The notes beneath the pieces are model-generated. The model did not search any database and was not told where the DNA came from. It worked only from the letters and a program-made list of their open reading frames with translations. Below, piece by piece: positions 27,067-64,000 of a DNA stretch of 64,000 nt. Within the stretch, counting starts at the first letter, position 1; each line of letters opens with the position of its first letter. The position numbers and the translations under genes are program-made. The stretch comes from an uncultured Holophagae bacterium (lineage in GTDB: Bacteria > Acidobacteriota > Thermoanaerobaculia > Thermoanaerobaculales > Sulfomarinibacteraceae). The stretch is taken from NCBI GenBank assembly GCA_963710645.1, contig CAVQBD010000002.1, positions 138,828 to 202,827 on the forward strand, read 5' to 3'.

Positions 27067-27070
27067 GTCA

Positions 27071-27126: not shown

Positions 27127-27154
27127 GTCGGAAGCTGACAGCATCAAATGATCA

Positions 27155-28017: not shown

Positions 28018-28033
28018 GGCACGCCGGTTGCTG
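28018..28033 (+). promoter_or_regulatory. Sigma-54 (-24/-12) promoter candidate for the beta-propeller and hmc-like operon
   Basis: TGGCACGCCGGTTGCT matches the consensus at every conserved position (GG 28019-28020, GC 28031-28032). It lies about 60 nt upstream of ATG 28092, with an AT-rich tract just upstream. Confidence 0.7.
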
Positions 28034-38510: not shown

Positions 38511-38553
38511 GATCCTCCGGTCTGCAGCGATGGAGTGTCCAGCGGTGCCACCT

Positions 38554-38934: not shown

Positions 38935-38967
38935 CCGCTGCCTCCCGACCGCCCGGCACCGGGCCGT

Positions 38968-40062: not shown

Positions 40063-40134
40063 TCAACTTCCGGCCAGGGAATTTTGTCACCGCCGTTCGT
40101 CGCCATGGCGGTGGCTGCGCGGCCCAAGTCTTTG

Positions 40135-41664: not shown

Positions 41665-41808
41665 TCTCGAACCTCCCCGAGCGACTCCTTCACATCGAAA
41701 ATCAACAGCCCCTGCATGGCGACCCCATCGCTTTCTGTTCAGCCCAGCGGCTCGATTGTACTCCCGGTCGTGGGATTTCCCGCAACAGACAAATGGTTAG
41801 GCTGTGGC

Positions 41809-45414: not shown

Positions 45415-45541
45415 TTCCTTTATGCGATGTCGGATGGAGAATCAGACAAGATCATGCGACAGTTTGACAGCCGAGATGGCGACTGACAGAATTCTGGTGC
45501 CTGCGATGTGATGTCGGGGCTTGAGCCGAGGGGGTCGAAAC

Positions 45542-46767: not shown

Positions 46768-46771
46768 GAAA

Positions 46772-48505
<1,734 letters not shown>

Positions 48506-48510
48506 ATTGA

Positions 48511-48894
48511 ATGAGTCGTCTTCGAGTCTTGTTCGTCGACGATGAAGAGGAGTTCGTATCGGCGGTCGTCGAACGACTCCAACTTCGAGGGATCGAAGCC
48601 ACAGGTGCGATAACTGGTGCAGAGGCTCTCGATCTGATCGACCGGGAAACCTACGACGTCGTCGCGGCCGATGTGAAGATGCCGGGGCTCGGAGGGCTCG
48701 AGATCGTCCGGCGCATCAAGGATCGACATCCCGGGCTGCAGGTGATTCTGCTGAGCGGTCACGGCTCGCGAGATGATGCCGAGGAGGGGCGTCGGCTCGG
48801 TGCCTGCGATTACTTGGAAAAACCCATCGACATCGAGATTCTGATAGAAATCTTGCGCAAGGCTGCCGCGTCGGCAGGGCCGGTGGTCCGGTGA
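48511..48894 (+). CDS. Single-domain CheY-like response regulator
   Basis: RVLFVDDEEEF...DVVAADVKMPGLGG...VILLSGHG...YLEKPIDIEIL. Confidence 0.9.
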   Translation: MSRLRVLFVDDEEEFVSAVVERLQLRGIEATGAITGAEALDLIDRETYDVVAADVKMPGLGGLEIVRRIKDRHPGLQVILLSGHGSRDDAEEGRRLGACDYLEKPIDIEILIEILRKAAASAGPVVR

Positions 48895-49613
48895 CCGACT
48901 CCGATTCCTCTCGAAAACGGGATGAGGGCCTTGCTTTCTTCGGCACGATGATCGCCGGACAATCCCACGAGCTCACCAACGTCCTCAATATCATCAAGGA
49001 GTTGGCCGGCCTGCAACACGATCTTCTGGAGGCAGGAAACACCGGGCGCCCCGTCGATCTTTCGAGGATTCAGGAGGTCGCATGCAGGATCCAAAACCAG
49101 GTCATGCGGGGCGACACGATCATTCGCAACCTCAACCATTTTGCTCACAGCGTCGACCTGCCGACGGCGGTATTCGATCTCAGGGAGGCGATTGAAAGGG
49201 TTGTGTTCTTCGCCGAGCGGTCGGCCCGGCTGGCCCGGGTCGAGTTGAGTCCGGACCTGCCGGAGGAATCGATGGCCCTCGAGAACAACCCGTTCAGCCT
49301 CCAGCAGGCGTTGTTCATTTGCATCGATCTTGCTCTGCAGTCCGCCACTGACGAACGAAAGGTGACCGTGGATTACAGCGTCTGCGAAGACGGGGCGAAG
49401 ATCCGGATCAACTCGGCCGACAGGCTGGCCAACGATGGTCTCGTCGCCGAGAAACTGGGGTTCCTCAGGCTGTTGCTGTCGGACCTTGGCGGGGTCCTCC
49501 TCAGGGGTCCTGGAGAGGAGCCGTACAACGCGATCGTTTTCAAAATCGGGCTGCACCGGGGCGAGCCATCCGGGCGGCTCGGATCGGCCCGAAGCTCAGG
49601 GGAAGAGAATTGA
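48891..49613 (+). CDS. Soluble histidine-kinase-like protein with a DHp/H-box but a degenerate ATPase domain
   Basis: GTGA overlap with the upstream gene. The H-box-like IAGQSHELTNVLNIIKELAG aligns with AGVAHEINNPLAII of the neighbouring kinase. The downstream region has no recognisable N, G1 or G2 boxes. Confidence 0.55.
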   Translation: MTDSDSSRKRDEGLAFFGTMIAGQSHELTNVLNIIKELAGLQHDLLEAGNTGRPVDLSRIQEVACRIQNQVMRGDTIIRNLNHFAHSVDLPTAVFDLREAIERVVFFAERSARLARVELSPDLPEESMALENNPFSLQQALFICIDLALQSATDERKVTVDYSVCEDGAKIRINSADRLANDGLVAEKLGFLRLLLSDLGGVLLRGPGEEPYNAIVFKIGLHRGEPSGRLGSARSSGEEN

Positions 49614-49668
49614 TACAGTGCGGACACCGGAACCGGCGGCCGGTGACGGCGGGTCGGAATGGAGGCGG

Positions 49669-50103
49669 ATGATGCGCGTCGAGAGCGTGTTGTTGGTTGA
49701 TGACGAAGTGGAGTTTGTTCAGACACTTGCAGAACGCATGCAGGCACGGGGACTGGCCGTCGAGTACGTCACCAACGGCCACGATGCCATCGAATCGGCG
49801 AGATCCAAGACCTACGATGCGGTGGTCCTCGATTTGGCCATGCCTGGAATGAACGGTCTCGAGACCCTCAAGATCCTCCTCCGAGATCATCCCGGCCTCC
49901 AGATCATGCTTCTCACCGGGCAGGCCACCGTTGGCGATGCCGTCGAGGCAACAAAGATCGGGGCGGTGGACGTCTTCGAAAAACCCACCGACATCGAGAC
50001 CCTGGTGGAGAAGATCCGCGAAGCCAGGAAAGCGCGACTCGCCCTGGAGGAGCAACACGCCCTCGATGAGATCGACAAGATCATGTCCACCAAGGGTTGG
50101 TGA
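49669..50103 (+). CDS. CheY-like response regulator with a short C-terminal helical tail
   Basis: ATG 49669 or 49672 follows GGAGG. VLLVDDEVEF...AVVLDLAMPGMNG...LLTGQA...VFEKPTDIETL. Confidence 0.85.
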   Translation: MMRVESVLLVDDEVEFVQTLAERMQARGLAVEYVTNGHDAIESARSKTYDAVVLDLAMPGMNGLETLKILLRDHPGLQIMLLTGQATVGDAVEATKIGAVDVFEKPTDIETLVEKIREARKARLALEEQHALDEIDKIMSTKGW

Positions 50104-50218
50104 GATATTCAGGCTGGCTAGCTCATATTGCGCGCGGAAAAGCGGTCCGGGTTTTCTGATTTTCCAAGCAGCATCAGGACGTCCCCTTCGCCGAAACGAG
50201 TATCGGCCGGAGGCGCAT

Positions 50219-52282
50219 TCAGCCTGCCCTCTCGAACCGTTCGAGGTGTTGTTCACTCCCCAACACCAGCATCACATCGCCCTCCTGAAAGACGTAGCCC
50301 GCACTGGGCATTTCGTCGATAAAAGTTTCCCCGTCGCTGCTCTTTCGCTTGATGAGCAGAAGGTTGACACCAAATTTCTGTCGAATGTCGAGCGAACCCA
50401 GACTCTGACCGAAGAAACTGGCGGGGACCGGGACCTCGGCAAGGCTCATGCCCCGAACTCCTGGGAGCGCTCGGGCTGACGGACCATTCCCCATTGTTCC
50501 GGCCATGGTCGAGGCCATATCGCGCTTGAGAATCTCGCCATTGTATGCCTCGATCACATCCTGCGGCCACAGGGTGCCCACGAGCCGTCCGCGATCCACC
50601 ACCGGCGCCATGAACCGATACCGTCCGAACCGCCTCATGACCTCGTCGAGCGGATCGTCGGGACCGAATACAGGGAAGCCGGTTTCCCTCATCATATCCT
50701 CGGCGATGACCAGACCTCGTGCCGATGCCGGATCGGTCATGAGGGGTCTGATGTCATCGATGGTAATCAGACCCAGGAGGTGGTGATTGGCGTCGGTCAC
50801 GAACACCGTATCGCCGGGGCGTTCGACAAAACGAGAAATCACGGGCATCAAATGGTCTTCTCGTCGGACCACGGTGACCTCGGTTCGCATCGCCTCGCGT
50901 GCGTTGAGCTGGCCAAGCACGTTGGCCGAGTATCCGCCCCGAATGTCGACCCCGCGTCGAAGCAGCTTGAGTGTATAGATCGACGCTGTCTGCATCCGTG
51001 TCGCGAGCAGAGTGGCGATGATGCAGCTGATCATCAGGGGAAGAATGATCTTGTAGTCGCCCGTGAGCTCGAAGATCATCACGATGGCGGTGATGGGAGC
51101 GTGGGTTCCCGCCGCGACAACGGCACCCATCCCCACCAGTGCGTAGGCGCCGGGGCTGGCCGACGCGTCGGGCCATAGGGAATGCACGATAGTCCCGACC
51201 GCCCCGCCGGCCATCGCGCCGATGAACAATGAGGGAGCGAAGATGCCGCCGGATCCGCCTGAACCGATGGTCAGGGAGACCGCCACGATCTTTACCAAGA
51301 CCAGGATCAGCAGCAGCTTCCACCCCAGTCCACCACTCAGTGCCTCGTTGATGGCTTCGTAGCCGACTCCAAGAACCTCCGGGAATTGGATCGCGATCAA
51401 TCCGATGAGCGCCCCGCCCATCGCTGGTTTGACGACAGCTGGAAGACTGAGAGCATCGAAGAGGTCTTCTGCGCCGTACAACGCACGAACAAAAACCAGG
51501 GCCACCAACCCGGCGATGATGCCCAACGCACCGTAGGCGAAGAGTTCGAGTGGGCTTGCGAGGCTGTAGGCCGGCACCTCAAATGCCGGGAAATTACCAA
51601 GGAAGTGTCGACTCACCACTGTTGCCGTGACAGATGAAATCACGATGGGAGAAAACTGGGTGACTCCAAAATCGCCGAGGATGATCTCCACTGAGAACAG
51701 GGCCCCGGCCACCGGCGCATTGAATGTGGCCGCGATCCCGGCCGCCGCGCCGCAGCCGACCAGGGTCCGCAGTCGCCGTTCTCCCACGCCCAACCACTGA
51801 CCGAGGGATGATCCGATCGCAGAGCCGATCTGGACGATCGGTCCTTCCCGACCCACTGACCCTCCAGATGCGATACACACGCCCGAGGCGAGGAGCTTGG
51901 CGACAACCACACGCGGACGGATCCGACCGCCCCGAAGGGCCACCGCCTCCATGACTTCCGGCACACCATGCCCCTTGGCTTCGGCAGCATAACGGACGAT
52001 GATCAGCCCGACGATCAGACCACCCACCGCCGGCGACAGCACTTTCCACCAACTCGGCAGACTTCTGAGGTATGCAAGAGTTACGTTGTCCGTTTGCCAG
52101 GCGACGGCCTGGAAGAGGCGTATGGACTCCCGGAACCCAACCGCACCAAGTCCACCGAGCAGCCCGATGACAACGGCCACGAGCACCATGTACGAGTGTT
52201 CGGTGTACTTCAGGAACAGGTGGGCACGCTCCGCCGCCTGGCGAACAAGATTGACAACCGGGATTCGGCTCAGCCAGCCCAT
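50219..52282 (-). CDS. ClC-family chloride channel/antiporter with a CBS pair and a C-terminal TrkA-C (RCK_C) domain
   Basis: GSVGREGPIVQIGS, GSGGSGGIFAPSLFIGA and the CBS region. The terminal segment VPASFFGQSLGSLDIRQKFGVNLLLIKR...GDVMLVLG is TrkA-C-like. Confidence 0.85.
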   Translation of the reverse strand: MGWLSRIPVVNLVRQAAERAHLFLKYTEHSYMVLVAVVIGLLGGLGAVGFRESIRLFQAVAWQTDNVTLAYLRSLPSWWKVLSPAVGGLIVGLIIVRYAAEAKGHGVPEVMEAVALRGGRIRPRVVVAKLLASGVCIASGGSVGREGPIVQIGSAIGSSLGQWLGVGERRLRTLVGCGAAAGIAATFNAPVAGALFSVEIILGDFGVTQFSPIVISSVTATVVSRHFLGNFPAFEVPAYSLASPLELFAYGALGIIAGLVALVFVRALYGAEDLFDALSLPAVVKPAMGGALIGLIAIQFPEVLGVGYEAINEALSGGLGWKLLLILVLVKIVAVSLTIGSGGSGGIFAPSLFIGAMAGGAVGTIVHSLWPDASASPGAYALVGMGAVVAAGTHAPITAIVMIFELTGDYKIILPLMISCIIATLLATRMQTASIYTLKLLRRGVDIRGGYSANVLGQLNAREAMRTEVTVVRREDHLMPVISRFVERPGDTVFVTDANHHLLGLITIDDIRPLMTDPASARGLVIAEDMMRETGFPVFGPDDPLDEVMRRFGRYRFMAPVVDRGRLVGTLWPQDVIEAYNGEILKRDMASTMAGTMGNGPSARALPGVRGMSLAEVPVPASFFGQSLGSLDIRQKFGVNLLLIKRKSSDGETFIDEMPSAGYVFQEGDVMLVLGSEQHLERFERAG

Positions 52283-52304
52283 GGGGCAAGTCTACGCCCT
52301 TCAG

Positions 52305-52748
52305 TCACCGGTTGCGGCGCCACTCGCGCCACGCACGCCAAGCATGGCGCGAGGAGAGGAGCAGCGCCACTCCAACTGCGATATAGACCGCGCCGACGAT
52401 GCCACGCGTGACCGCGCCACGCAGCAGGCGGCCGGCAGCGATCATCACAATGACCAACGCCCAGGTGCTCAGCGAGAGGAAGCCACCGAGACATCGGCCG
52501 TCGCCGCGGGCACGGATTCGTTCGACGACCTTCCGCGCCGCACGATCGAGCACCAGCTGTGACTTGATCGCACCGACGACGACCGCGCCGGCCGCGATCC
52601 ACGGCGCGGCCGCGGGTGCCGCCCCCCACAGCCACCGAACTCCGAAGCCCGCCAGGGCCGCCCCCACCACCGCCCACATGAGCCACGCCAACATCAGGTG
52701 GGTCGGTACCGACGCCGCCGGTTTGTGGTTTTCTGCCCAATGGGTCAA
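52305..52748 (-). CDS. Hypothetical small membrane protein (about 4 TM)
   Basis: 147-aa ORF located 22 nt upstream of the ClC gene on the same strand, with hydrophobic helices. No family was recognised. Confidence 0.5.
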   Translation of the reverse strand: MTHWAENHKPAASVPTHLMLAWLMWAVVGAALAGFGVRWLWGAAPAAAPWIAAGAVVVGAIKSQLVLDRAARKVVERIRARGDGRCLGGFLSLSTWALVIVMIAAGRLLRGAVTRGIVGAVYIAVGVALLLSSRHAWRAWREWRRNR

Positions 52749-53019
52749 TGGAGTCCTCCGCGTGGGGGGTGCAGCCGGTCCCGTGAGAGAGAACCCGTTC
52801 GGATGATTATGACCCGATCACGCTCAATGGGGTGACCATGCGTGGAAATTTCATAGAGAGATTCGGTCGCTCGGCGCGACAGGATTCCTGGCTCTGTTGG
52901 ATTCTTCGGAGTTGGGACTGTCGGATTGGCCCGAGTGCCGATCTGGCATTTGATCCGACAGCGGAGTCCACAGCGAAGCCTTGTTTTGGGTACGCCGCTT
53001 GCATTTCAGGTGGGCGAAT

Positions 53020-53937
53020 ATGAATGTCCAGCAGGTGATTTCCACCGTGACAGATCCAGTGGCTGCAGGGCCGGGGACCGGGTCGGTCGTCGGATCGGTC
53101 AATGAGGGACACGATCCGCCACGGCGAGGTGTGCCATTGAGCCTGCTCCTCGGAGTGACCATCTCGGCGCTGGTTGTTCTTCTGCTCGGTGCGCTCACGA
53201 CCCTTCAGCTGCGACGTGAGGAACGGAGGGAGATCACTGCCCGAGAGGCCTTATTGGCCCAGTCGCTCGTGCCGCTGGCCCAGGAAGTCGAGCAGGCGGG
53301 CAGCCTCGGTGAGATCGAGCAGGTCCTATCCTCTTGCCGGGTCGGCGAGATCGCTCTCGGCCGATCCGGCTACAACGTGGTGTTTCGCGATGACCGAGGC
53401 CGCGTGTTGGTCTCGGCTGATGCATCGGGCGGGGTTTCGCCGCCCGACGATTCGCTTCGGGCGAGTGTGGCGGTGCGTTCGAATGTGCTTTCCGCGGGAG
53501 GCGGAACACTCGCAGCGTGGCAGGACACCTCGAGTCTCGCCAAAGAGATGATGTTACGTCGAAAGGTGGCCTGGGTCGATATCGCGATCACCGGATTGGC
53601 CGTCATAGTCGTCATCCAGTTGGCGGTATATCTCCTCGTCACGCGGCCCATGAACCGGTTGCTGACAGCCATCGACAGATTCGAACAGGGGTATCCCGCA
53701 AAGTTCCGAAATGGCGCCGTCGCGCGCGAACTGCGCTGGTTGGGGTGGCGGTTCCACCGGATGAACACCAGCCTGACCGACAACGCCCGTTGGTTGGTGG
53801 CTGCGCACCGGCGAGCAGTGGAAACCTCGAGATCTCGGCGACAACAAGAAACTGGATCCTCTGCCCTTCGACCCTCTCGACCTGGATCGCGCCGAGGTGA
53901 CGGCTGGAAACGAGATCATGCGGCGCTTCTTGAGTGA
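53020..53937 (+). CDS. Membrane protein with two TM segments and a HAMP-like linker
   Basis: ATG 53020. TM1 LSLLLGVTISALVVLLLGAL, then a roughly 140-aa outer region, then TM2 VDIAITGLAVIVVIQLAVYLLV, then a HAMP-like segment TRPMNRLLTAIDRFEQG. Codon-position GC indicates that the last roughly 35 codons of the listed frame are probably not the true frame (see findings). Confidence 0.6.
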   Translation: MNVQQVISTVTDPVAAGPGTGSVVGSVNEGHDPPRRGVPLSLLLGVTISALVVLLLGALTTLQLRREERREITAREALLAQSLVPLAQEVEQAGSLGEIEQVLSSCRVGEIALGRSGYNVVFRDDRGRVLVSADASGGVSPPDDSLRASVAVRSNVLSAGGGTLAAWQDTSSLAKEMMLRRKVAWVDIAITGLAVIVVIQLAVYLLVTRPMNRLLTAIDRFEQGYPAKFRNGAVARELRWLGWRFHRMNTSLTDNARWLVAAHRRAVETSRSRRQQETGSSALRPSRPGSRRGDGWKRDHAALLE

Positions 53938-54635
53938 CCGATGTGCGTGGCTCGAAGGTTGTAGTCCGGAAAATCCAGAGGCTCGGGACGACCGCCCTGG
54001 AGGTATGGACAAACGATGTCGTCGATGCTGAGCGATTTGGTGAGATGGCCCTCCGCGCGCGGCTCGAGAACGCCGCCCTGAAGGTCCTCGATCCGGAGGC
54101 CTTCGATGGGGTGAGCAGAGGACTGGAGTCGATGGTCGCTGCGCAGGCCACGTGGTGTGCTGCGACCGAAGCGGCCATCGTCTCGGCACTTTCCGCCGAT
54201 GGCGTGCAGTATGTGGCGATCCAGCGCAGGGCCAAGCACGTCGCGGGGGTGTGGCGAAAAATGAAAGAGAAACACCTTGCCCTTGAAGACGTGCAGGATT
54301 TGTTCGCCTTTCGGATCATCGTTCCAGGGCAGGATGAATGCTATCTGGCTCTTGCCACCGTCCATCGTTTGTTCGACCCGGAGCCGTTTCGATTCAAGGA
54401 CTACATAGCAAATCCCAAGGCGAACGGCTACCAGAGCCTCCACACCAGTGTCCGTGATCGGGGCGGTTTTGCATTCGAGATCCAAATCCGAACCGTCGAC
54501 ATGCACCGTGCGGCTGAGGAGGGTGCTGCCGCCCATTGGCGTTACCGAGCCGGCAAATCCGTGCGCAACAGGGCATCGGCGAGGTCTGCGGGTCTGGGTG
54601 GTCTTGGTGCTCTGATCAGGCGTCGGCGTGGGTGA
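53934..54635 (+). CDS. RelA/SpoT-domain small alarmone synthetase-like protein
   Basis: Synthetase-domain motifs RAKHVAGVWRKMKEK, DLFAFRIIV, YIANPKANGYQSLHTSV, FEIQIRTVDMH and AAHWRYR. GTG 53934 overlaps the upstream TGA. Confidence 0.8.
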   Translation: MTDVRGSKVVVRKIQRLGTTALEVWTNDVVDAERFGEMALRARLENAALKVLDPEAFDGVSRGLESMVAAQATWCAATEAAIVSALSADGVQYVAIQRRAKHVAGVWRKMKEKHLALEDVQDLFAFRIIVPGQDECYLALATVHRLFDPEPFRFKDYIANPKANGYQSLHTSVRDRGGFAFEIQIRTVDMHRAAEEGAAAHWRYRAGKSVRNRASARSAGLGGLGALIRRRRG

Positions 54636-56361: not shown

Positions 56362-57720
56362 ATGGATAACAGTGATTTCGATCCGGCACAGATCATTCTT
56401 GACAGCGTCGCCGACGGGGTCTTCACCGTCGATCGCCAGTGGCGCATCAGCTCGTTCAACCGGGCAGCGGAAGAGATTACAGGCGTGCCCCGGGAAGAAG
56501 CTCTGGGACAACGCTGCTGCGATGTGTTTCGGGCCAGCATCTGTGAATCCGGTTGCGCCCTCAGACACACCCTCGAAACCGGGGAAAATGTCGTCAACAA
56601 AAAGGTTTTCATTGTCGATACCGACGGTACCAAACTCCCGGTGAGCGTTTCGACGGCGATCCTCAGGGACGCCGATGGGCAACCCAAGGGTGGTGTCGAG
56701 ACCTTTCGCGATCTCAGCCACGTCGAGCAGCTGCGCAAGGAACTCGAGGGCCGTTTCTCGCTCGGCGACATCATTGGCCGCAGTCGTCCCATGAGGGACC
56801 TTTTCGAAGTGCTTCCGGCGATCGCGGCCAGCGAGAGCACCGTCGTCGTCCACGGCGCCAGCGGGACAGGCAAGGAGCTCTTCGCCCGTGCGATCCACCA
56901 GCTGTCACCGAGACGGGACAAACGGTTTGTTGCCATCAACTGTGGTGCTCTTCCGGACACTCTGCTTGAAAACGAACTCTTCGGCCACGTGGCCGGCGCC
57001 TTCACCGACGCCCGTCGTGACAGGCCGGGTCGTTTCGCCCATGCGGAAGGGGGCACCATCTTCTTGGATGAGATCGGGGATATTTCCCAGGCGATGCAGG
57101 TTCGTCTGCTGCGGGTTCTCCAGGAGCACGTCTACGAGCCTCTCGGCTCGGTGGAGCCGGTGACAGCCGACGTCCGGGTCATCGTCGCCACTCACCGCGA
57201 TCTCGCAAGCCTCGTTGAGGATGGAGTTTTCAGGGAAGACCTCTACTATCGCATCAACGTGATGAAGCTGGAGCTGCCGGCATTGAAAGAGCGCCGGGAG
57301 GACATTCCGCTGCTGGTGGATCATTTTGTCCAGCGATTCAACCGGCTTCAGGACAAGGACGTCGTCGGAGTGTCGGACGAGGTTCTCAGCCTGCTCATGA
57401 CATATTCGTTCCCAGGCAACGCCCGGGAGTTGGAAAACGTCATCGAGCACGCCTTCGTGCTCTGCAATGAAGGCTGCATCGAACTCAGACACCTGCCACC
57501 TGAAATCAGTCAGGGATCCGAAGTTCCTCCGGTGGAATCCCGGGGGGGAATGACTCTCCGTGAGATGGAAGCCCTGCAAATATCGCTTGCACTCCACCGC
57601 CATGGCGGAAACCGGAAGGCGGCGGCCGATGAGCTTGGGATCCACCCGAGCACCCTCTTCCGGAAACTCAAGGATCTGGAGATCGAGCCGCCGGAGCGCG
57701 ACGGTCGGAATAGTCAGTAG
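56362..57720 (+). CDS. Sigma-54-dependent transcriptional activator with an N-terminal Cys-rich PAS domain
   Basis: ATG 56362 is residue 463 of listed ORF 54976..57720; the upstream 462 codons are the antisense shadow of the kinase gene. PAS with GQRCCDVFRASICESGCAL, Walker A GASGTGKE, GAFTDA loop and a C-terminal Fis-type HTH. Confidence 0.9.
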   Translation: MDNSDFDPAQIILDSVADGVFTVDRQWRISSFNRAAEEITGVPREEALGQRCCDVFRASICESGCALRHTLETGENVVNKKVFIVDTDGTKLPVSVSTAILRDADGQPKGGVETFRDLSHVEQLRKELEGRFSLGDIIGRSRPMRDLFEVLPAIAASESTVVVHGASGTGKELFARAIHQLSPRRDKRFVAINCGALPDTLLENELFGHVAGAFTDARRDRPGRFAHAEGGTIFLDEIGDISQAMQVRLLRVLQEHVYEPLGSVEPVTADVRVIVATHRDLASLVEDGVFREDLYYRINVMKLELPALKERREDIPLLVDHFVQRFNRLQDKDVVGVSDEVLSLLMTYSFPGNARELENVIEHAFVLCNEGCIELRHLPPEISQGSEVPPVESRGGMTLREMEALQISLALHRHGGNRKAAADELGIHPSTLFRKLKDLEIEPPERDGRNSQ

Positions 57721-57889: not shown

Positions 57890-58291
57890 ATGGCGGGAAG
57901 GACGATGCGATACAGTGAGGCATTCAAGCAGCAGGTAGTGGACGAGCTCGAGGCGGGGCGATTTGGGAGTCCACATGAGGCATCACAGGCCTACGGTGTT
58001 GATTCGGGGTCGGTGAAGCGTTGGGCTAGACAGTACGGCAAGGGGCACTTGCTGCGGAAGGTGGTACGAGTGGAGAAGCAAGACGAGCCTGGGGAGATCA
58101 AGCGTTTGAAGGAACGGGTGCGAGGCTTGGAAGCTGCGTTGGCGGATTCGGTGATGGACCAGGCGTTGGATCAGGCGTTTTTCGAGATTCTGTGCGAGCG
58201 GATGGGCATCGACGCGAGAGAGTTTAAAAAAAAGCACGCTGGTCAGGCGTCCACCGGGCGGGCAAGAAACTCCAAGGACGACGCGGAGTAA
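57890..58291 (+). CDS. IS3-family transposase OrfA (HTH)
   Basis: MRYSEAFKQQVVDELEAG...VKRWARQY plus a leucine-zipper-like region, typical of IS3 OrfA. Confidence 0.85.
   Translation: MAGRTMRYSEAFKQQVVDELEAGRFGSPHEASQAYGVDSGSVKRWARQYGKGHLLRKVVRVEKQDEPGEIKRLKERVRGLEAALADSVMDQALDQAFFEILCERMGIDAREFKKKHAGQASTGRARNSKDDAE
58228..58234 (+). other. Programmed -1 ribosomal frameshift heptamer A AAA AAG in the IS3 element
   Basis: TTTAAAAAAAAG at 58223-58234. In the orfA frame the codons are AAA AAA AAG. The -1 frame downstream reads ARWSGVHRAGKKLQGRRGVSIERLCCKVGMTRQNYY with no stop codon before orfB. Confidence 0.7.
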
Positions 58292-58302
58292 GCATCGAGA
58301 GG

Positions 58303-59109
58303 TTGTGCTGCAAGGTGGGCATGACCCGGCAGAACTACTACAAGCAGAGGCGGCGGCGAAGACGGAGAGAAGTCGACGAGAGTCTGATCATCGCTCTGGT
58401 CAGGCGGGAGCGACAGCAGCAGCCGCGGCTTGGTTGTAGGAAGCTCCATCGGCATTTGCGTCAGCAGTTTCGAGACGCCGGTATCCAGGTCGGTAGAGAC
58501 CGGATGTTTGAGGTTCTTCGTCATCACGGGATGCTGGTCAGACCGTTGCCGAAGAAACCCCGCACTACGTTTTCGGGGCACTCTTTGCCGGTGTATAGGA
58601 ATCTCATCTCTGAGCTTGAGGCCACGGCTCCAAACCAGATCTGGGTCAGCGACGTGACCTACATCCGGACGTGGGGGGGGTTTGAGTACCTCACTCTGAT
58701 CATGGACCTGCACTCCCACAAGATCGTCGGCTATCACTGTGGAGAAAGCCTCGACACCAAGACTTCCATGAAAGCGTTGGATCAGGCGATTGCGGATCTG
58801 CCAGACGACAGGTATCCAATTCACCATTCAGATCGAGGAAGCCAGTACTGTAGCCACAAGTATGTCGAACGCCTGAATGGTCGCTACTTGCCGGTGAGCA
58901 TGACCGAGTTGAATCACTGTGCCGAAAACTCAACTGCAGAGAGACTCAACGGCATCCTCAAACAGGAGTATGGCCTCGGAAGAACTTTCCTCAGCCGGCA
59001 GCAGGTACGACGCGCTGTCGATGAAGCCGTCTGGCTCTACAACCACCGCCGACCCCACATGACCCTCGATTACCAATACCCTGCCAAGGTCCATGAACTG
59101 GCCGCCTGA
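58303..59109 (+). CDS. IS3-family transposase OrfB (rve/DDE integrase core)
   Basis: IWVSDVTYI (D), HHSDRGSQY (D) and AENSTAERLNGILKQE (E). The -1 frame is open from the slippery site at 58228 through to this ORF. Confidence 0.9.
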   Translation: MCCKVGMTRQNYYKQRRRRRRREVDESLIIALVRRERQQQPRLGCRKLHRHLRQQFRDAGIQVGRDRMFEVLRHHGMLVRPLPKKPRTTFSGHSLPVYRNLISELEATAPNQIWVSDVTYIRTWGGFEYLTLIMDLHSHKIVGYHCGESLDTKTSMKALDQAIADLPDDRYPIHHSDRGSQYCSHKYVERLNGRYLPVSMTELNHCAENSTAERLNGILKQEYGLGRTFLSRQQVRRAVDEAVWLYNHRRPHMTLDYQYPAKVHELAA

Positions 59110-59603
59110 CAAGGCTGGCTCCTTCACACAACTTGATCACTTCTCCACAGCCTGATGAACCACCGCGCGGCCCACCCTCCCGACTGCGGAGTTGCGGAAA
59201 GCTGGCCCCCTCCCCACCTCCCTCCACCTTCCCACAGCCTCCGCAGCCACGACGACGAATAGTGACAACTTTTCGCCAGGACTTGACCAGCGTTTCATCT
59301 TGGCATCCTGAGCGAGGCCCACCGGGCCGAGTCGAAGGATCTGGGTGGGTGGGGAGCCGATGCGTTCTTGCCCCCACCCAGACCCTTCGTCGCTCCGCTC
59401 CTCAGGATGACATCTGTCTTCCTCATTCTCGAGTTCAATCGAGGCTGGAACTGCCTACTGCCTACTGGCATCAATCGCGAAATGCGACGGTAGCCTCCGT
59501 TGCCCGGGCAGCGTTCTGCGAGGCAGCCGTGGCGCGTCTCGTTCGTTCGTTCGTAACTATATTTTTTTGAACATCTTAAGACCGAGAGTGCAGCAGAAAG
59601 AGT

Positions 59604-59619
59604 TGGCAGGATCATTGCT
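59604..59619 (+). promoter_or_regulatory. Sigma-54-like -24/-12 element abutting the NifX-like start codon
   Basis: TGGCAGGATCATTGCT has correct GG-N10-GC spacing. However, the predicted transcription start would fall at or within 2 nt of ATG 59631. Confidence 0.35.
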
Positions 59620-59630
59620 ATAGCTGGAGC

Positions 59631-60095
59631 ATGCGACTCGCCGTACCAGCTTGGGAAGGCCGAGTGTCGCCGCTCTTCGACGTGGCGAAGTGGCTTATGG
59701 TCATTGACGTCATCGGCGGTGAGGCGACCTTCACAAAGGTCTATCCAATCGGCGGCCCCAACCGCAAGCGGGTTGTCTCTGAGCTCGGCATCGATGTCCT
59801 GATCTGCGGCGCCATTTCCCGTGAACTCGAGGACGGATTGGTGGCCAGCGGGGTCGAGGTGGTCGCCGAGATCAGGGGCCGGATCGAGGACGTCGTGCGA
59901 GCGCATACCCAGGGCAGCCTGGTTCAGCCGCGGTTCTTGATGCCGGGATGCCATGGTCGGCGTCGCCGTGCCCGGACCCGGGCGAGCCGCATGGAGACGG
60001 TGGACGCGTCCGAGCGGCGATCCGCCGAAAGGGCTGATGGCGCTTCCGGAGGTTGGCCTGACGGTGGGGGACCGGAGGGTTGGATGGTCCACTAG
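59631..60095 (+). CDS. NifX/NifB-like (dinitrogenase Fe-Mo cofactor-binding fold) small protein with an Arg/Gly-rich tail
   Basis: MRLAVPAWEGRVSPLFDVAKWLMVIDV...GIDVLICGAISRELEDGLVASGVEVV is the typical pattern of this family. The C-terminal roughly 50 aa are low complexity. Confidence 0.65.
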   Translation: MRLAVPAWEGRVSPLFDVAKWLMVIDVIGGEATFTKVYPIGGPNRKRVVSELGIDVLICGAISRELEDGLVASGVEVVAEIRGRIEDVVRAHTQGSLVQPRFLMPGCHGRRRRARTRASRMETVDASERRSAERADGASGGWPDGGGPEGWMVH

Positions 60096-60250
60096 CCTGG
60101 TCGAGACCGAAAACCCGTGCGGTTCGCGGGACGAGGTAGATGGGTCGAAACGTGGCAAGGCCGTTGTCGTTACTGACTCGTGACACTTTTCACGAGTTCC
60201 CGCCCATGGTCGAGCAATCGGCTCGGAGAGCACCATTTTACATGTCTCAA

Positions 60251-60296
60251 CCTATTGCAAATAGGAATCTTAGAAAGCACGTTACGGTCTCGTAAC
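60251..60296 (+). promoter_or_regulatory. Two small palindromes, candidate activator-binding (UAS) sites upstream of the 60391 promoter
   Basis: CCTATTGCAAATAGG (60251-60265) and GTTACGGTCTCGTAAC (60281-60296) lie 95-140 nt upstream of the -24 element. Confidence 0.3.
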
Positions 60297-60390
60297 TGAA
60301 ACCCGGGTTGACCGCCGGGCAACTGTGGGTGGCGCGAGGCAATCCTCAGTTGTTGCAATGGCTTGCGTCACCGGACGCCGGCTGTCTCTC

Positions 60391-60406
60391 TGGCACAGCG
60401 GTTGCA
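60391..60406 (+). promoter_or_regulatory. Sigma-54 (-24/-12) promoter candidate for yeiH-like and dsrAB
   Basis: TGGCACAGCGGTTGCA (GG 60392-60393, GC 60404-60405). It lies about 47 nt upstream of ATG 60453. Confidence 0.7.
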
Positions 60407-60452
60407 CTGCTCCAATGGGCTGAGGTGTGTTTCGAAACCATCGGAGCGTGAG

Positions 60453-62105
60453 ATGGCCAGCGGAATCAAGAAATTCTGGACGACCGAAGACTACTGGGCC
60501 GTGTGGCTCGGTCTCGGGATTGTCTTGCTGGCGCTTGGCGCGTTTGCGGCGGGGGGCTCCATCAAGGGGTGGGCGGTCACGCCTGGTTCCTGGTCGACTC
60601 CGGGCGAGTTGGGGGCAGACCTTGCCAATCATTGGTCCGGCTATCTGACCATTTTTCTGCTCTTTGGTGTGGTGTTCTCGGTTTCCATCGCCGTGATGGG
60701 CCGCAAGATCTCAGAGTTCGTTCCAGGATTCACCATCTTGTACCTCGGTTCGTTGGCCATCTTCTACCTGGCCGCCAATCCATTCGTTGGCAAGACCCTC
60801 CATCTGGGTGCTCCCCTCCTGGCCCTCATTCTCGGTCTCATCATCGGCAACGTGATCCACTTGCCGGAGTGGTTTTCCGCCGCGTTGAGAACCGAGTACT
60901 ACATCAAGACGGGCATCGTGCTGCTAGGGGCGACCCTGCCGCTGACGCTGATTTTCAAGGCCGGACCGATTGCCTTCGTGCAGGCCACCATCGTTTCGGT
61001 CTGCACGTGGCTCACCATCTACCTGGCGGCCACGAGGGTTTTCCGGTTGGAACCGCAGTTCGCTGCTGTGCTCGGTGCCGGCGGCGCGGTCTGTGGAGTT
61101 TCGGCCTCCATTGCCGTGGGAGGTGCGGTGAAGGCCAAGAAAGACCACATCGCCATCGGAATCGCGGTGGTGTCGGTTTGGGCCATCGTCATGATCCTGG
61201 TCCTCAGCGTGGTGGTGAAGCTGATGGTGCCGACGCCGATCTCACCCGGAGAGGCGGGCGCGTGGGTGGGGACTTCGGAGTTTGCCGACGCTGCCGGTTT
61301 CGCGGTGGTGGCGGAGCTGTCAACGGTCATCGAAGCGGGCGTCATACGGGCTGCCGACGGCTCGATGATGAACCCCGACGACCCCATCAACACCTTCACC
61401 CTGATGAAGGTGATCGGGCGCGATATCTGGATTGGCATCTGGTGTCTGATCCTGGCCGTTGTGTCGGTGATGTTCTGGGAGAAGGACGAGGGAGCCCAGC
61501 GGACGGTGGGGCCTGGAGTGATCTGGGAGCGGTTCCCGAAATTCGTGCTCGGTTTCTTTGCCGCGTCGATCATCATGACGGCGGTGTCTGCCAACCCGCC
61601 CACAGACCACGTGGGGCGGGCATCGGTTGAGGGCACCTACAAGACCAGTGCCGAAAAGATCGTGTATGACGCCGACTTCTCCGACTACGCGGCACCGGGG
61701 GAACTGGCCGGCCGATTCGCCTACGATGCGCCCGCTGGCGAGATCACATACCTGGGCGAGATGAGGCTTTCCGAATACGACGACCTGGCGGCCGCGATTC
61801 CGGCGAGCGATCCCGATCTCAAGGACAAGAAGGGAGCCCTGAAACAGCTTCGCTTCAAATCCGACTGGTTCGAGTCCGAGCTCAGACCGCGGGTGATCTC
61901 ACCCATCAAAAAACTCCGGTCATGGGCCTTCGTGCTGTGCTTTCTGTGCATCGGGTTGTCCACCAGGTTCAAGGATCTGCTGACCTTCGGGCTCAAACCG
62001 TTCTGGGCCTTCACCATCGGTGTGGCGGTCAATGTGCCCCTCGGGTACTTTTTATCAACTGTCGTTTTTTCAAAGTTTTGGAGCAATATCAGCGACATGA
62101 TGTGA
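60453..62105 (+). CDS. YeiH/UPF0324-family putative sulfate-exporter-type membrane protein with a roughly 110-aa soluble insertion
   Basis: ATG 60453 follows GGAGCG. Polytopic, with a family-like core (...YIKTGIVLLGATLPL...VLGAGGAVCGVSASIAVGGAV...). A hydrophilic insert (ANPPTDHVGRAS...FKSDWFESELRPR) precedes the last TM segments. Confidence 0.65.
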   Translation: MASGIKKFWTTEDYWAVWLGLGIVLLALGAFAAGGSIKGWAVTPGSWSTPGELGADLANHWSGYLTIFLLFGVVFSVSIAVMGRKISEFVPGFTILYLGSLAIFYLAANPFVGKTLHLGAPLLALILGLIIGNVIHLPEWFSAALRTEYYIKTGIVLLGATLPLTLIFKAGPIAFVQATIVSVCTWLTIYLAATRVFRLEPQFAAVLGAGGAVCGVSASIAVGGAVKAKKDHIAIGIAVVSVWAIVMILVLSVVVKLMVPTPISPGEAGAWVGTSEFADAAGFAVVAELSTVIEAGVIRAADGSMMNPDDPINTFTLMKVIGRDIWIGIWCLILAVVSVMFWEKDEGAQRTVGPGVIWERFPKFVLGFFAASIIMTAVSANPPTDHVGRASVEGTYKTSAEKIVYDADFSDYAAPGELAGRFAYDAPAGEITYLGEMRLSEYDDLAAAIPASDPDLKDKKGALKQLRFKSDWFESELRPRVISPIKKLRSWAFVLCFLCIGLSTRFKDLLTFGLKPFWAFTIGVAVNVPLGYFLSTVVFSKFWSNISDMM

Positions 62106-62179
62106 GGAGTTTGTGTCGGGTGGGCCATCGTTGGTCTCCCCGCCGAGAAAATTTCTGAAATCAATGGAAAGGAGTGGCC

Positions 62180-63391
62180 ATGACAGAAGAGAGAAAAACG
62201 CCGCTGCTTGACGAGCTCGAAAAGGGACCGTGGCCGAGCTTTGTCAAGGAGATCAAGAAGGAGGCCGTTCGCAACGATATGTCGAACGACGTCCTGGGCA
62301 TCCTCGAACGGTCCTACGAGGAGCACATCAGCCACTGGAAGCATGGCGGACTAGTGGGTGTGATGGGGTATGGCGGGGGCGTCATCGGACGCTACTGCGA
62401 TATCCCCGAGGATTTCCCCAACGTCAGGGAGTTCCACACCTATCGCGTCAATCAGCCGTCGGCGTGGTTCTACAACACCGCGGCCCTGCGCCAGCTGTGT
62501 GATATCTGGGAGAAGTACGGCTCCGGTCTGACAAACATGCACGGCTCCACCGGCGACATCGTCTTCCTCGGGTCCGACACTGCGGCCCTGGAACCCTGTT
62601 TCGCCGAACTGAGCCACGAGCGTGAAGGTGAGCCGAGCTGGGACCTGGGCGGATCGGGCTCCAACATGCGGACCCCGAGCTGCTGCGTCGGTCCGGCGCG
62701 GTGCGAGTGGGCCTGTTACGACACCCTGGATGCCTGCTACGACATCACCCAGACCTTCCAGGACGAACTGCACCGGCCGTTCTTCCCCTATAAGTACAAG
62801 TTCAAGTTCGCCGGCTGCCCCAATGACTGTGTGGCGTCCATCGCACGATCGGACTGCTCGGTTATCGGCACCTGGAAGGACGACATCCAGGTCGATCAGG
62901 CCAAGGTTGCGGAGTACGCCGCGGGCGGCACCGACATCCAGGCCGAGGTCATCGACTACTGCCCCACCGCCTGCATGGCGTGGGACGGCAAGACCCTGGA
63001 CATCGACAACTCCAACTGCGTCAAGTGCATGCACTGCATCAACGTGCTCCACTTAGCCCTCAAGCCCGGCAAAGAGCGCGGCGCCACCATCCTCGTTGGT
63101 TCGAAGGCTCCGATCGTCGGCGGCGCGCTGCTGTCGTCGGTTTTCGTGCCTTTCCTCGAGATGGAACCCCCGTACGAAGATCTCAAGGAGCTCACCGAAG
63201 CGATCTGGGATCTCTGGGGTGAGCACGGCAAGGCCCGTGAGCGCACAGGCGAGTTCATCCAACGGGTGGGCCTCGGCAACTTCCTCGACGAGATCGGTCT
63301 CGAGCCGATCCCGGAGATGGTCATGCATCCACGCACCAACCCCTACATCTTCTTCGACACCGAGCTCGATGAAGATGAAGACGAAGAATAG
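62180..63391 (+). CDS. dsrA: Dissimilatory sulfite reductase alpha subunit
   Basis: ATG 62180 follows GAAAGGAG (GTG 62174 is an alternative). [21 protein letters not shown]-terminus, siroheme/Fe-S Cys motifs ([19 protein letters not shown]) and a ferredoxin insert (CPTACMAW...[10 protein letters not shown]). Confidence 0.93.
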
Positions 63392-63404
63392 AAGGGAGGC
63401 CCTC

Positions 63405-64000
63405 ATGACTGAATTCGAACGCCAAACCGATATCGGGCCGCCACACTACGGGCAGTTTCTTCCGCCCGTCATCAAGAACAACTACGGCAAGTGGGACCAT
63501 CACGAGATCCTCAAGCCGGGCGTGATGGTGCACGTGGGTGAGACAGGCGACAAGCTGTTCACCGTGCGCGCAGGAACACCGCGACTCCTGGCGATCACCT
63601 CGATTCGTGAGATGGCTGACCTGGCGGACAAATATTGTGATGGATACCTTCGTTGGACCAGCCGCAACAACGTCGAGTTCCTGCTCACCGACGAGTCCAA
63701 GATCGAGCCGTTGATCAAGGACGTGGAGACGCTGGGCTATCCCGTCGGCGGGACTGGCAACCAGATTTCCAACATCGTTCACACCCAGGGCTGGGTCCAC
63801 TGCCACTCCTCCGCGTCGGACGCGTCGGGTGTGGTCAAGTCCGTCATGGACGAGCTCTTCCCGTACTTCAGCGGTGAGAAGAGCCTGCCGGCCAAGCTTC
63901 GGGTGGCCTACGCGTGTTGCCTCAACATGTGCGGCGCGGTGCACTGCTCGGACATCGCGATCCTCGGGGTCCACACAAAGGTGCCGGCGATCAACCACGA
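63405..64000 (+). CDS. dsrB: Dissimilatory sulfite reductase beta subunit (5' part; runs off the window end)
   Basis: Not in the ORF track because it has no stop in the window. ATG 63405 follows a GAAGGGAGG RBS. My translation is [40 protein letters not shown]...[18 protein letters not shown]...[13 protein letters not shown]...[18 protein letters not shown]. Confidence 0.9.

Follow-up and report, generated by a model that had tools for sequence, protein, structure and literature searches.

A long-form YeiH-family transporter gene between a predicted sigma-54 promoter and dsrAB in an acidobacterium

In the window, a 64-kb stretch of DNA from a Thermoanaerobaculia/Holophagae-like acidobacterium, a gene for a long-form transporter of the YeiH family lies, as part of a sulfur-metabolism island, between a sigma-54 promoter and dsrA. 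Our main reading, to which we give a probability of roughly 0.6, is that we see here the control region and leading genes of an activator-dependent dsr operon whose transporter moves sulfite. Dissimilatory sulfite reductase drives a large share of anaerobic carbon mineralisation; to our knowledge, little appears to be established about the regulation of dsrAB outside a few model organisms, and we know of no sulfite carrier identified in sulfite or sulfate reducers. The transporter described here is a candidate for such a carrier in sulfite-respiring bacteria.

Results

The first-pass annotation of this DNA had proposed a -24/-12 element upstream of a 550-aa membrane protein, and the element is indeed there. 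The sequence TGGCACAGCGGTTGCA at positions 60391-60406 (forward strand, as are the genes and the RNA hairpin located below), that is TGGCAC-AGCGG-TTGCA, matches TGGCAC-N5-TTGCW perfectly, with the -24 GG, the -12 GC and the exact spacing. Two perfect matches are present in the window against 0.05 expected, a number reached by none of 100 shuffles. The element is followed after 46 nt by the ATG (60453) of the 550-aa PF03601 gene, called yeiH from here on, and transcription would be expected to start near 60417. A perfect copy of the promoter also lies 42-53 nt 5' of the yeiH start in 21 species-level acidobacterial genome loci. The use of sigma-54 in this organism is implied by the presence in the window of three genes resembling those of enhancer-binding proteins (EBP-like).

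Two palindromes had been noticed at a distance typical of activator sites; both exist, but only one of them is conserved. The conserved one, GTTAC-N6-GTAAC at 60281-60296, reads GTTACG-GTCT-CGTAAC in the window. In 17 of the 21 genome loci a perfect palindrome of this form lies at -108 to -111, counted from the T of TGGCAC, and sequence and position are kept while the spacer and the flanks vary. Sites of this type with at most one mismatch occur four times in the window (0.21 expected), and site and promoter are 92-95 nt apart in each of the 62 dsr-linked cassettes from metagenomes, even though distances of 88-99 nt were permitted in the search. We infer that 60281-60296 is the main binding site of an enhancer-binding protein. 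The other palindrome, CCTATT-GCA-AATAGG at 60251-60265, is probably not an activator site and was dismissed as one, since none of the 21 related promoters has the same sequence at that place.

A possible second, weaker site, GTTAC-TGACTC-GTGAC, with one mismatch, is found at 60169-60184, 112 nt upstream of the main one. Full palindromes occupy the matching position (-217 to -221) in four genome loci (L003, L004, L005 and L029; such labels denote individual compared loci), and among the dsr-linked metagenome loci a near match was seen in 10, a half-site in 3 and neither in 47. These occurrences hint at a second activator site at about -220. A further site-like sequence at 24204-24219, about 300 nt 5' of dsrM, is followed by no -24/-12 element and was excluded from the regulon.

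A gene upstream of these sites (56380-57720) encodes a sigma-54 enhancer-binding protein with a PAS domain, an AAA+ sigma-54 interaction domain and a Fis-type HTH, as recognised by the Pfam families PAS_9, Sigma54_activat (222 bits), AAA_lid_14 and HTH_8 (45 bits). Its translation shows the loop GAFTDA, of the GAFTGA type, and the PAS-domain sensor carries the cysteine motif CC-x7-C-x3-C. The protein reached no NCBIfam equivalog cut-off, the best being PrdR with 354 bits against 795. In 7 genome loci an orthologue is placed directly 5' of the cassette of site and promoter, and among the dsr-linked metagenome loci the gene holds this position in 22 of the 35 whose upstream sequence reaches 1500 nt or more. 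The protein is the probable cognate activator of the promoter, and its binding is predicted.

Downstream of the transporter, dsrA (62180-63391) codes for the alpha subunit of the dissimilatory sulfite reductase (TIGR02064, 575.8 bits against a cut-off of 392.85). The gap after the yeiH stop had been given as 68-74 nt, and both start codons behind this range exist, GTG at 62174 and ATG at 62180; we favour the ATG, and hence 74 nt, because its AAAGGAG-N6-ATG context is conserved in relatives. The 5' part of dsrB (63405-64000) runs off the window, its frame-2 translation being open to the end. In relatives, the gene after dsrA falls into one homology cluster with it and is taken as dsrB. The gene after dsrB is an 80-aa gene with no Pfam match at 1e-3 in the acidobacterial relatives and a 78-aa gene that matches PF08679 DsrD in Syntrophales. 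Acidobacterial DsrAB have been assigned to the reductive type (PMC10564751).

The adjacency of yeiH and dsrA recurs widely. With GC3-filtered gene calls in the high-GC loci, it was found in 37 of 80 species genome loci, across two phyla (Acidobacteriota and Syntrophales), and the pairs sit inside dsr clusters with dsrMK, dsrD, dsrL, dsrN and dsrC. The distance from the yeiH stop to the dsrA ATG is only about 20 nt in L009, L012, L014-L017 and the Syntrophales. An independent metagenome scan for the site plus promoter gave 103 stretches, from which 80 loci were fetched; in 62 of them the cassette leads to yeiH-dsrA or to dsrA directly (by item, 34 into yeiH and 27 straight into dsrA) and in 6 to dsrT (DsrT-like, RsbRD_N). 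Two loci were of insufficient length, and most of the others are low-GC or unrelated. The linkage is thus not universal, the promoter being often directly 5' of dsrA.

Variants of the locus bear on which gene the promoter serves. In eight loci a stub of yeiH remains between promoter and dsrA: three of them (L105, L152 and L157) have about 16 codons of the yeiH start fused to the last ~30 codons, followed by the same RBS and dsrA, and in the other five (L115, L127, L153, L160 and L151) the gene is reduced to a C-terminal stub. These loci argue that the promoter serves dsrAB. The same is suggested by L018 and L023, where promoter and upstream site lie within the yeiH-dsrA gap instead, and by L025, with the promoter alone in that position, which indicate that the cassette belongs to dsrAB. 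On the other hand, the repeated loss of yeiH from the operon means that the transporter is not essential for DsrAB function. Taken with the conserved promoter and site, the metagenome scan and the ~20-nt gaps, these deletion variants strongly favour the first-pass proposal of a dsrAB unit that is driven by sigma-54 and begins with yeiH, and a single transcript from the promoter through yeiH into dsrAB is most likely in this organism.

It seems unlikely to us that yeiH and dsrAB are instead largely expressed separately here, by attenuation or processing at the end of yeiH or from an unrecognised dsrA promoter, even though several features invite the idea. The 74-nt gap contains an RNA hairpin at 62117-62142; a hairpin with a T-run is found at 62034-62048, inside the yeiH coding sequence; and the last 60 nt of yeiH are AT-rich (GC 0.37 against 0.61 in the gene body), a peculiarity of the window. 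The transcript may therefore be partly terminated or processed there, or an internal promoter may have escaped recognition. Some Syntrophaceae (L043, L052 and L063) have an evident TTGACA-N17-TAnnAT promoter between the two genes, and a membrane carrier is normally present in much smaller amounts than DsrAB. However, simple scans found no sigma-70-like promoter in 59500-64000, the gap included, and no terminator-like site in the gap, in agreement with the earlier statement that nothing recognisable of either kind lies between the yeiH stop (62105) and dsrA, with the two hairpins as caveats. The gap hairpin has no U-run and is not significant (minimum free energy of -24.7 kcal/mol for 80 nt, z = -1.25), and the site at 62034-62048 is in translated sequence and at chance level, with 5 such sites against 3.5 expected. 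Moreover, the deletion variants and ~20-nt gaps of relatives show the upstream promoter serving dsrA. Among the relatives, L001 has a strong version of the gap hairpin (z = -3.9), but L008, L011 and L064 lack it, and the idea of a conserved RNA element was dropped; the hairpin may have a part in RNA processing or stability, or none at all.

The transporter gene (60453-62105) has a GGAG 5 nt upstream of its ATG. Its product belongs to PF03601 (125 bits against a cut-off of 24.5), the match covering residues 93-380 and profile positions 3-261 of 304; the YeiH family is also known as the Putative Sulfate Exporter (PSE) family, TC 2.A.98. PF03601 is the sole Pfam family found in the protein, PF01925 (TauE/SafE) being absent. 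The label "YeiH-type" given to it earlier stands at the level of the family, but the protein falls below the cut-off of the curated YeiH subfamily model TIGR00698, with 66 bits against 232.6. By BLASTP, it shares 27% identity with E. coli YeiH over 182 aa (E = 2e-11), and the core motifs GAGxxxCG...KA and GxxxGT/S align between the two and are invariant within the long subfamily. Whereas canonical members have about 350 aa without a large soluble domain, the 550 residues here include an N-terminal extension of ~90 residues, formed by two helices and without a Pfam match, and an insertion of ~100 aa. More than 100 homologues at least 69% identical share the 550-aa length, and mean column identity across 28 transporter sequences is 75%. 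The AF2 model of the whole protein has a mean pLDDT of 72; with it, Foldseek retrieved from the PDB weak matches to elevator-type carriers (NhaP, CitS and AspT; E above 0.02), and a PDB sequence search found nothing. By its sequence, then, the transporter is a member of a divergent long subfamily of YeiH/PSE carriers.

An insertion of roughly 110 aa before the last helices had been pointed out, and we place it at about residues 381-484 (61593-61904), which is ~100 aa. There it breaks the PF03601 profile ahead of the last two helices, and it is present in 27 of 27 aligned homologues. The AF2 model predicts with confidence a fold of five beta-strands and three helices (block means of pLDDT 84-93 for residues 371-500 when the whole protein is modelled; mean 82 for the insertion alone), for which no match was found in Pfam or, by Foldseek, among the structures of the PDB. 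A profile search of 1.84 billion proteins with the insertion matched 21 representatives. The domain is probably periplasmic, as indicated by the K/R bias in the loops on either side of it together with the C-terminus of E. coli YeiH, which is reported as periplasmic (PMC12880088).

Discussion

In the mechanism that we propose, the PAS-AAA+-HTH activator would bind GTTAC-N6-GTAAC at 60281-60296, and perhaps the weaker 60169-60184, and DNA looping over the fixed distance of ~93 nt would allow it to activate the sigma-54 RNA polymerase at 60391-60406. The transcript from near 60417 would then carry the transporter gene, dsrA and dsrB, and by synteny would extend to dsrD, a gene for a 152-aa protein without a Pfam match, dsrL and dsrN. 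The transporter, which keeps the two core motifs of its family and adds two N-terminal helices and a folded, putatively periplasmic domain, would most likely carry sulfite (bisulfite) through the inner membrane, in coordination with the expression of DsrAB. We lean toward the uptake of external sulfite as an electron acceptor, with export as a relief valve a close alternative. Proton-coupled uptake of sulfite in Desulfovibrio is known at the physiological level from Cypionka's work. The more elaborate idea that the long-form YeiH is the dedicated permease for sulfite uptake in dissimilatory sulfite respiration, with the insertion capturing or gating bisulfite and with co-switching with DsrAB by the PAS activator at GTTAC-N6-GTAAC, is tentative and to us somewhat doubtful.

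That the substrate would be sulfite is suggested by the genetics of the family, published in two papers of 2026 that connect canonical YeiH with resistance to sulfite. In Salmonella, deletion of yeiH causes sensitivity to sulfite, and a regulator that binds sulfite induces the gene (PMC12880088). In Bordetella, excess cysteine induces the YeiH homologue bp2808, a mutant lacking it was cultured with sulfate or sulfite as a supplement, and the authors are undecided between sulfite export, sulfate export or both (bioRxiv 10.64898/2026.04.22.720190). The phenotypes of canonical YeiH are those of an exporter more than of an uptake system, and the transfer of a substrate from YeiH is weak owing to the identity of 27% with the E. 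coli protein and the TIGR00698 score of 66 against 232.6 bits.

Within the same operon, the transporter could instead export the product side of the reaction, namely HS- or by-products such as thiosulfate or trithionate, which we judge quite unlikely. The gene of an exporter usually accompanies that of the enzyme producing its substrate, and the product of DsrAB is sulfide; the low similarity to characterised YeiH proteins leaves room for a different substrate; and the frequent loss of yeiH fits a dispensable efflux aid, as H2S also crosses membranes by diffusion. A parallel is reportedly found in Clostridium, where a gene for a hydrosulfide channel accompanies asrABC, as described by Czyzewski and Wang in 2012. 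Against product export, the protein shows no similarity to FNT channels, PF03601 being all that Pfam detects, and the only known phenotypes of its family concern sulfite or sulfate (PMC12880088; bioRxiv 10.64898/2026.04.22.720190). For roughly half of the long-form transporters, the gene is in unrelated surroundings (with DUF2804, FeoB, MarR or AAA genes, for example), and a sulfur-gene scan around those not adjoining dsrA found heterogeneous contexts. Such non-sulfur neighbourhoods of homologues with 57-64% identity, as well as the frequent deletion of the gene, could suggest a neighbour without a sulfur role, such as a generic anion or osmolyte carrier captured ancestrally between promoter and dsrA, but this is improbable given an adjacency kept in two phyla despite different promoters and surrounding gene orders, the high conservation of the protein and family genetics that indicate sulfite (PMC12880088).

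Among the closest known systems is YeiH of Salmonella and E. coli, with which the transporter shares PF03601, the two core motifs and, through YeiH, a link to sulfite (PMC12880088). The differences are considerable: YeiH has 349 aa and neither the N-terminal residues nor the insertion added here, it is regulated by a divergent LysR regulator such as YeiE and not by a sigma-54 promoter with an enhancer-binding protein, and it is not located inside a dsr cluster. The subfamily described here has an extra folded domain matching nothing in Pfam or the PDB and is embedded in dsr clusters of two phyla. SuyZ and TauZ, the PF03601-type putative sulfate exporters of sulfonate degraders, also belong to operons of sulfite-handling enzymes, are not known to carry the insertion domain, and accompany desulfonation, which generates sulfite or sulfate, whereas the enzyme encoded here consumes sulfite. 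The TauE/SafE exporters of sulfite or sulfoacetate (PF01925) and the asrABC-linked FNT hydrosulfide channel follow the same concept of a sulfur-anion carrier beside sulfite-metabolising enzymes, although both families are unrelated to the transporter by Pfam.

The pairing of yeiH with dsrAB had been thought uncharacterised, and our searches of a literature library returned no description of it, key acidobacterial or dsr papers and a sigma-54 regulon survey being silent at the level of keywords. The intact, deleted and absent yeiH genes behind the same promoter form a natural experiment, and their correlation with the sulfate-activation genes sat, aprAB and qmo across metagenome-assembled genomes would bear on import versus export.

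The regulatory module, with its PAS activator, GTTAC-N6-GTAAC site and sigma-54 promoter at fixed spacing, precedes dsrAB or dsrT in many uncultured marine and wetland Acidobacteriota and, if true, would represent a previously undescribed transcriptional control of these genes in that phylum. Its layout resembles that of NtrC-glnA and NifA-nifH, which have a -24/-12 promoter, a palindromic site ~100 nt upstream and an AAA+ HTH activator encoded beside its target. It differs from them in its targets, dsrAB (with or without yeiH) and dsrT, and in its sensor, a PAS domain with a cysteine motif and not a receiver or GAF domain; the NifA site, TGT-N10-ACA, is also different from GTTAC-N6-GTAAC.

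Two further elements separate the activator gene from the promoter region in the window. Transposase genes of the IS3 family (57890-59109; orfA 57890-58291 and orfB 58303-59109; Pfam HTH_Tnp_1, rve and rve_3) follow the activator gene; terminal inverted repeats of the element were searched and none found, and the element is absent from the same position in the syntenic relatives L001, L006, L008, L011 and L064. Between it and the promoter region is a gene (59631-60095) for a small NifX/NifB-like protein with a Nitro_FeMo-Co domain (PF02579, 36.4 bits), whose homologues are likewise placed between activator gene and promoter region in L001, L056 and L062.

The sigma-54 promoter and the yeiH-dsrA junction

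The window, a dissimilatory sulfur-metabolism island with a GC content of 62%, carries a perfect match to the sigma-54 consensus TGGCAC-N5-TTGCW, TGGCACAGCGGTTGCA, at 60391-60406 on the forward strand. Two perfect matches are present against 0.05 expected, a number reached in 0 of 100 shuffles. The transporter gene yeiH (60453-62105, forward strand, 550 codons) starts at an ATG at 60453, preceded by GGAG and located 46 nt downstream of the promoter; the mechanical list gives a longer ORF that opens with TTG ahead of the promoter, a start we do not consider credible. Its product matched Pfam PF03601 (Cons_hypoth698, YeiH family) with 125 bits, and dsrA matched TIGR02064 with 575.8 bits (cut-off 392.85). 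Since the block AAAGGAG-N6-ATG is invariant among relatives at the start of dsrA, we place this start at ATG 62180 and not at GTG 62174, and the yeiH-dsrA gap is therefore 74 nt. The dsrB gene follows from 63405 on the same strand and runs past the window end, such that only its 5' part is included. Simple scans revealed no sigma-70-like promoter across 59500-64000 and no terminator-like site inside the yeiH-dsrA gap. The first-pass annotation had described a sigma-54 element followed by yeiH, a clean gap and dsrA, and the promoter match, the profile scores and the gap scans bear this out. A hairpin in the gap (62117-62142) is without a U-run and is not significant (z = -1.25), and a hairpin with a T-run inside the yeiH coding sequence (62034-62048) is at chance level.

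Co-transcription of yeiH and dsrA is the best-supported reading of this arrangement, and we give the operon and its regulatory architecture, as described here, a probability of about 0.8. The variants found in related loci are informative in this respect. In three of them (L105:6600-6870 on the reverse strand, L152:295-565 and L157:135-405), a mini-ORF of about 16 yeiH start codons (VHEELQKLWKIEDYW...) joined to the last ~30 codons stands behind the retained promoter and 5' leader, and is followed by the same intergenic ribosome-binding site and dsrA. The other remnants, in L115, L127, L153, L160 and L151, are C-terminal stubs with at least three different end points (residues 472, 505 and 523). 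In these deletion variants the sigma-54 promoter is the sole promoter before dsrA. The differing end points, with start and stop regions kept, indicate repeated loss of the transporter, and such loss behind an unchanged promoter shows the transporter to be accessory.

Two further sets of relatives support read-through of the promoter into dsrA. Three loci with yeiH-dsrA gaps of 252-607 nt (L018, L023 and L025) have a perfect sigma-54 promoter inside the gap and not before yeiH, with the activator site ~110 nt upstream of it in L018 and L023. In L009, L012, L014-L017 and the majority of Syntrophales loci, the dsrA ATG comes ~20 nt after the yeiH stop, which leaves space for a ribosome-binding site only. 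The counter-examples are three loci of Syntrophaceae, where the gap measures 113-245 nt and contains an obvious TTGACA-N17-TAnnAT promoter.

The GC content of yeiH drops from 0.61 in the gene body to 0.37 in its last 60 nt (62045-62105), which is the lowest value of the acidobacterial loci compared (0.43-0.60 in the relatives over the same conserved peptide). This stretch contains the rare AT-rich codons TTT, TTA and TCA, and may reflect drift or else a regulatory or processing signal that escaped recognition.

Conservation of the putative activator site and its promoter

A scan with the transporter profile, with one genome per species, yielded 80 loci. In 21 acidobacterial loci of this set, the yeiH start is preceded at a distance of 42-53 nt by a perfect or near-perfect TGGCAC-N5-TTGCA. 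Seventeen of the 21 also have the palindrome GTTAC-N6-GTAAC, 108-111 nt upstream as counted from the T of TGGCAC, with a six-base spacer and flanks that vary between genomes. Two palindromes had been proposed as activator sites in the first-pass annotation; the one at 60281-60296 is this conserved element, whereas the one at 60251-60265 has no counterpart in any relative and was rejected. A one-mismatch copy at 60169-60184 is possibly a weak second activator site, graded so because full copies stand at the equivalent position in four genomes yet are mostly absent from the metagenome set.

We then searched metagenomes with the pattern GTTAC-N6-GTAAC-N(88-99)-TGGCAC-N5-TTGCA, that is, with DNA alone and without protein information, and of the 103 stretches recovered, 80 loci were examined. 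Downstream of the promoter we found a yeiH homologue in 34 of the 80 (seven of them deletion remnants), dsrA directly in 27, a DsrT-like RsbRD_N protein in six, too little sequence in two and other contents in 11. About nine of these last 11 are low-GC or unrelated contexts; L125, with dsrA at +422, and L151, with an eighth yeiH remnant, are still part of the module. Although the pattern allowed 88-99 nt, the spacing between site and promoter was 92-95 nt in all dsr-linked loci (62/62). In 22 of the 35 dsr-linked metagenome loci with enough upstream sequence, and in seven genome loci too, the site is closely preceded by the end of the gene for the PAS/AAA+/HTH enhancer-binding protein, the putative activator. 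The recurrence of the cassette and of the adjacent activator gene therefore suggests a module of three elements (activator, site and sigma-54 promoter), and by its sequence distribution this module is a recurrent candidate control unit for dsr genes in these Acidobacteriota. The DsrT-like gene (RsbRD_N, PF14361) stands behind the cassette in L091, L118, L129, L137, L146 and L148, and is followed by a DsrK-like gene in L118 and L137; the regulon of the activator thus seems to take in dsrT(MK...) besides dsrAB.

In the window, an IS3-family element (57890-59109) and a NifX-like gene (59631-60095) lie between the activator gene (56380-57720) and the site. The element, comprising orfA and orfB, is inserted between the activator and NifX-like genes and is absent from this position in syntenic relatives; its terminal inverted repeats were looked for and not found. 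A one-mismatch -24/-12 element, TGGCAGGATCATTGCT (59604-59619), ends 12 nt before the NifX-like start at 59631, and its significance is doubtful because this distance is too short for a normal leader. The PAS domain of the activator has a cysteine motif, CC-x7-C-x3-C (RCCDVFRASICESGCALRH, residues ~45-65), also seen in the orthologue of L006 (RCCEVFQASICGTICPLRH), which possibly serves in metal, Fe-S or redox sensing.

Linkage of yeiH and dsrA in two phyla

In the 80 species genomes, yeiH lies directly before dsrA in 37, and the two are adjacent wherever the transporter shares at least 65% identity with the query, the truncated L065 excepted. The order in Acidobacteriota is (kinase, VTT-domain protein, dsrM, dsrK) yeiH dsrA dsrB, an 80-aa DsrD-like gene, a 152-aa protein without Pfam match, dsrL and dsrN, and in Syntrophales it is yeiH dsrA dsrB dsrD dsrN dsrC dsrM dsrK; thus, the adjacency persists despite different promoters and surroundings in two phyla. 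Homologues of the long form with 57-64% identity, from Desulfobacterota and some of the Acidobacteriota, are found in mixed contexts (DUF2804, FeoB, MarR, AAA ATPase and methyltransferase genes), and the subfamily is therefore not exclusively dsr-linked.

Taken singly, the components are familiar: the carrier is from PF03601, the promoter is of the sigma-54 type and comes with an enhancer-binding protein, and the enzyme genes are dsrAB. Our literature search found no paper on YeiH together with dsrAB; keyword searches of key papers on acidobacterial and global dsr genomics returned neither YeiH nor an exporter, nor sigma factors in those searched for them, and a 2025 sigma-54 regulon survey gave no mention of dsr genes or Acidobacteriota. 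As far as can be told, three features are new: a long-form subfamily that carries the insertion domain, the position of its gene at the head of dsrAB operons, and the conserved activator-site-promoter module for dsr genes.

The transporter and its insertion domain

The databases contain more than 100 proteins with at least 69% identity to the transporter, and nearly all are ~550 aa long, the exceptions being a few fragments and mis-called starts; mean column identity in an alignment of 28 sequences is 75%. Aligned with E. coli YeiH (349 aa), the transporter shows 27% identity across 182 residues, which span the two conserved motifs of the family, and the curated YeiH model TIGR00698 scores 66 bits (cut-off 232.6). 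Judged by these comparisons, the protein is a member of the Pfam family, yet not a canonical YeiH. Unlike E. coli YeiH, it has ~90 extra N-terminal residues (two helices) and an insertion at residues ~381-484.

The insertion is conserved throughout the subfamily, and no other part of the protein is modelled as confidently (block-mean pLDDT 84-93 for residues 371-500, overall mean 72; 82 when modelled alone). Its predicted fold has five strands and three helices. It has no match in Pfam, nor does its model among PDB folds. Its profile matched only 21 of 1.84 billion representative proteins, namely fragments of the same transporters and a few giant repeat proteins (P0123, 5844 aa; P0130, 4683 aa; P0132, 3475 aa; P0137, 1532 aa; P0135, 1020 aa) with 4-8 copies of a unit matching the core of the insertion. 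In the two inspected, P0135 and P0137, this unit shares with the insertion the strand-turn-strand-helix motif YDxxxGxLxFxGxMxxxEYxxL. Of the three compared with Pfam, P0132 and P0135 have no match, and P0137 has only a marginal one to CLSTN_C (28.7 bits, cut-off 27). Because these proteins hold units like its core, there is a hint that the insertion may derive from an extracytoplasmic repeat module. The insertion is probably periplasmic, since the flanking loops (343-363 and 504-513) are K/R-rich and the C-terminus of E. coli YeiH is periplasmic (PMC12880088). The whole model bears only a weak resemblance to elevator-type carriers such as NhaP1, CitS and AspT (E above 0.02), which agrees with what is reported for YeiH (PMC12880088).

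Regarding substrate, the genetics of the family points to sulfite. Loss of yeiH renders Salmonella highly sensitive to sulfite, and the sulfite-binding regulator YeiE induces the gene (PMC12880088). In Bordetella, excess cysteine induces the homologue bp2808; a deletion mutant was examined with sulfate and sulfite added, and the authors could not choose between export of sulfite, of sulfate or of both (bioRxiv 10.64898/2026.04.22.720190). As a carrier probably co-expressed with a cytoplasmic sulfite-consuming enzyme, the transporter would most simply be a sulfite carrier, an assignment to which we give about even odds. As for direction, uptake is favoured by operon logic, a substrate permease travelling with the catabolic enzyme, and export by the YeiH phenotypes; export of the product HS- is a third option.

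Other features of the window

The second perfect sigma-54 promoter, TGGCACGCCGGTTGCT (28017-28032), precedes a beta-propeller-like protein gene (28092-29354) whose start context, AAAGGGAGTGGCCATG, is that of dsrA, and after which lies a second DsrMK-type set: NarI-like (29370-30017), Fer4/CCG (30060-31379), Fe-S (32279-33937) and NrfD (33934-35121). GTTAC-N6-GTAAC is absent upstream of this promoter. A one-mismatch copy of the site, GTTACGCGCTGGGAAC (24204-24219), is located ~300 nt upstream of dsrM (24521), with no -24/-12 element between them. A near-consensus -24/-12 element, CGGCACACCGATTGCA (13994-14009), lies 24 nt before the gene of a small cysteine-rich protein (14034-14276, 80 aa, no Pfam match), which is followed by a DsrL/HdrD-like fusion (14263-16416; Fer4_20, FAD/NAD and CCG domains); homologues of the small protein adjoin long-form yeiH in L010, L040 and L075.

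About 13 distinct tandem-repeat arrays of heptanucleotides, each built from a unit of its own (period 7, 3.4-8.4 copies), are distributed in the window, including those at 4882-4917, 5090-5142, 6656-6686, 8301-8324, 13957-13987, 23594-23781, 24082-24180, 27070-27128, 27209-27233 and 27818-27843. They are reminiscent of the cyanobacterial STRR heptamer repeats and lie mostly between called genes, several of them just upstream of promoters or dsr genes, with none in the yeiH-dsrA region. Finally, a block of ~17.6 kb (36984-54635) breaks the synteny of the relatives, in which the order at this place is NrfD, response regulator, HEAT protein, response regulator, kinase and activator. The block contains a histidine kinase, a response regulator, transporter-like genes and a 1201-aa ORF, and several of its genes are closest to genes in the Gemmatimonadota loci L069 and L073.
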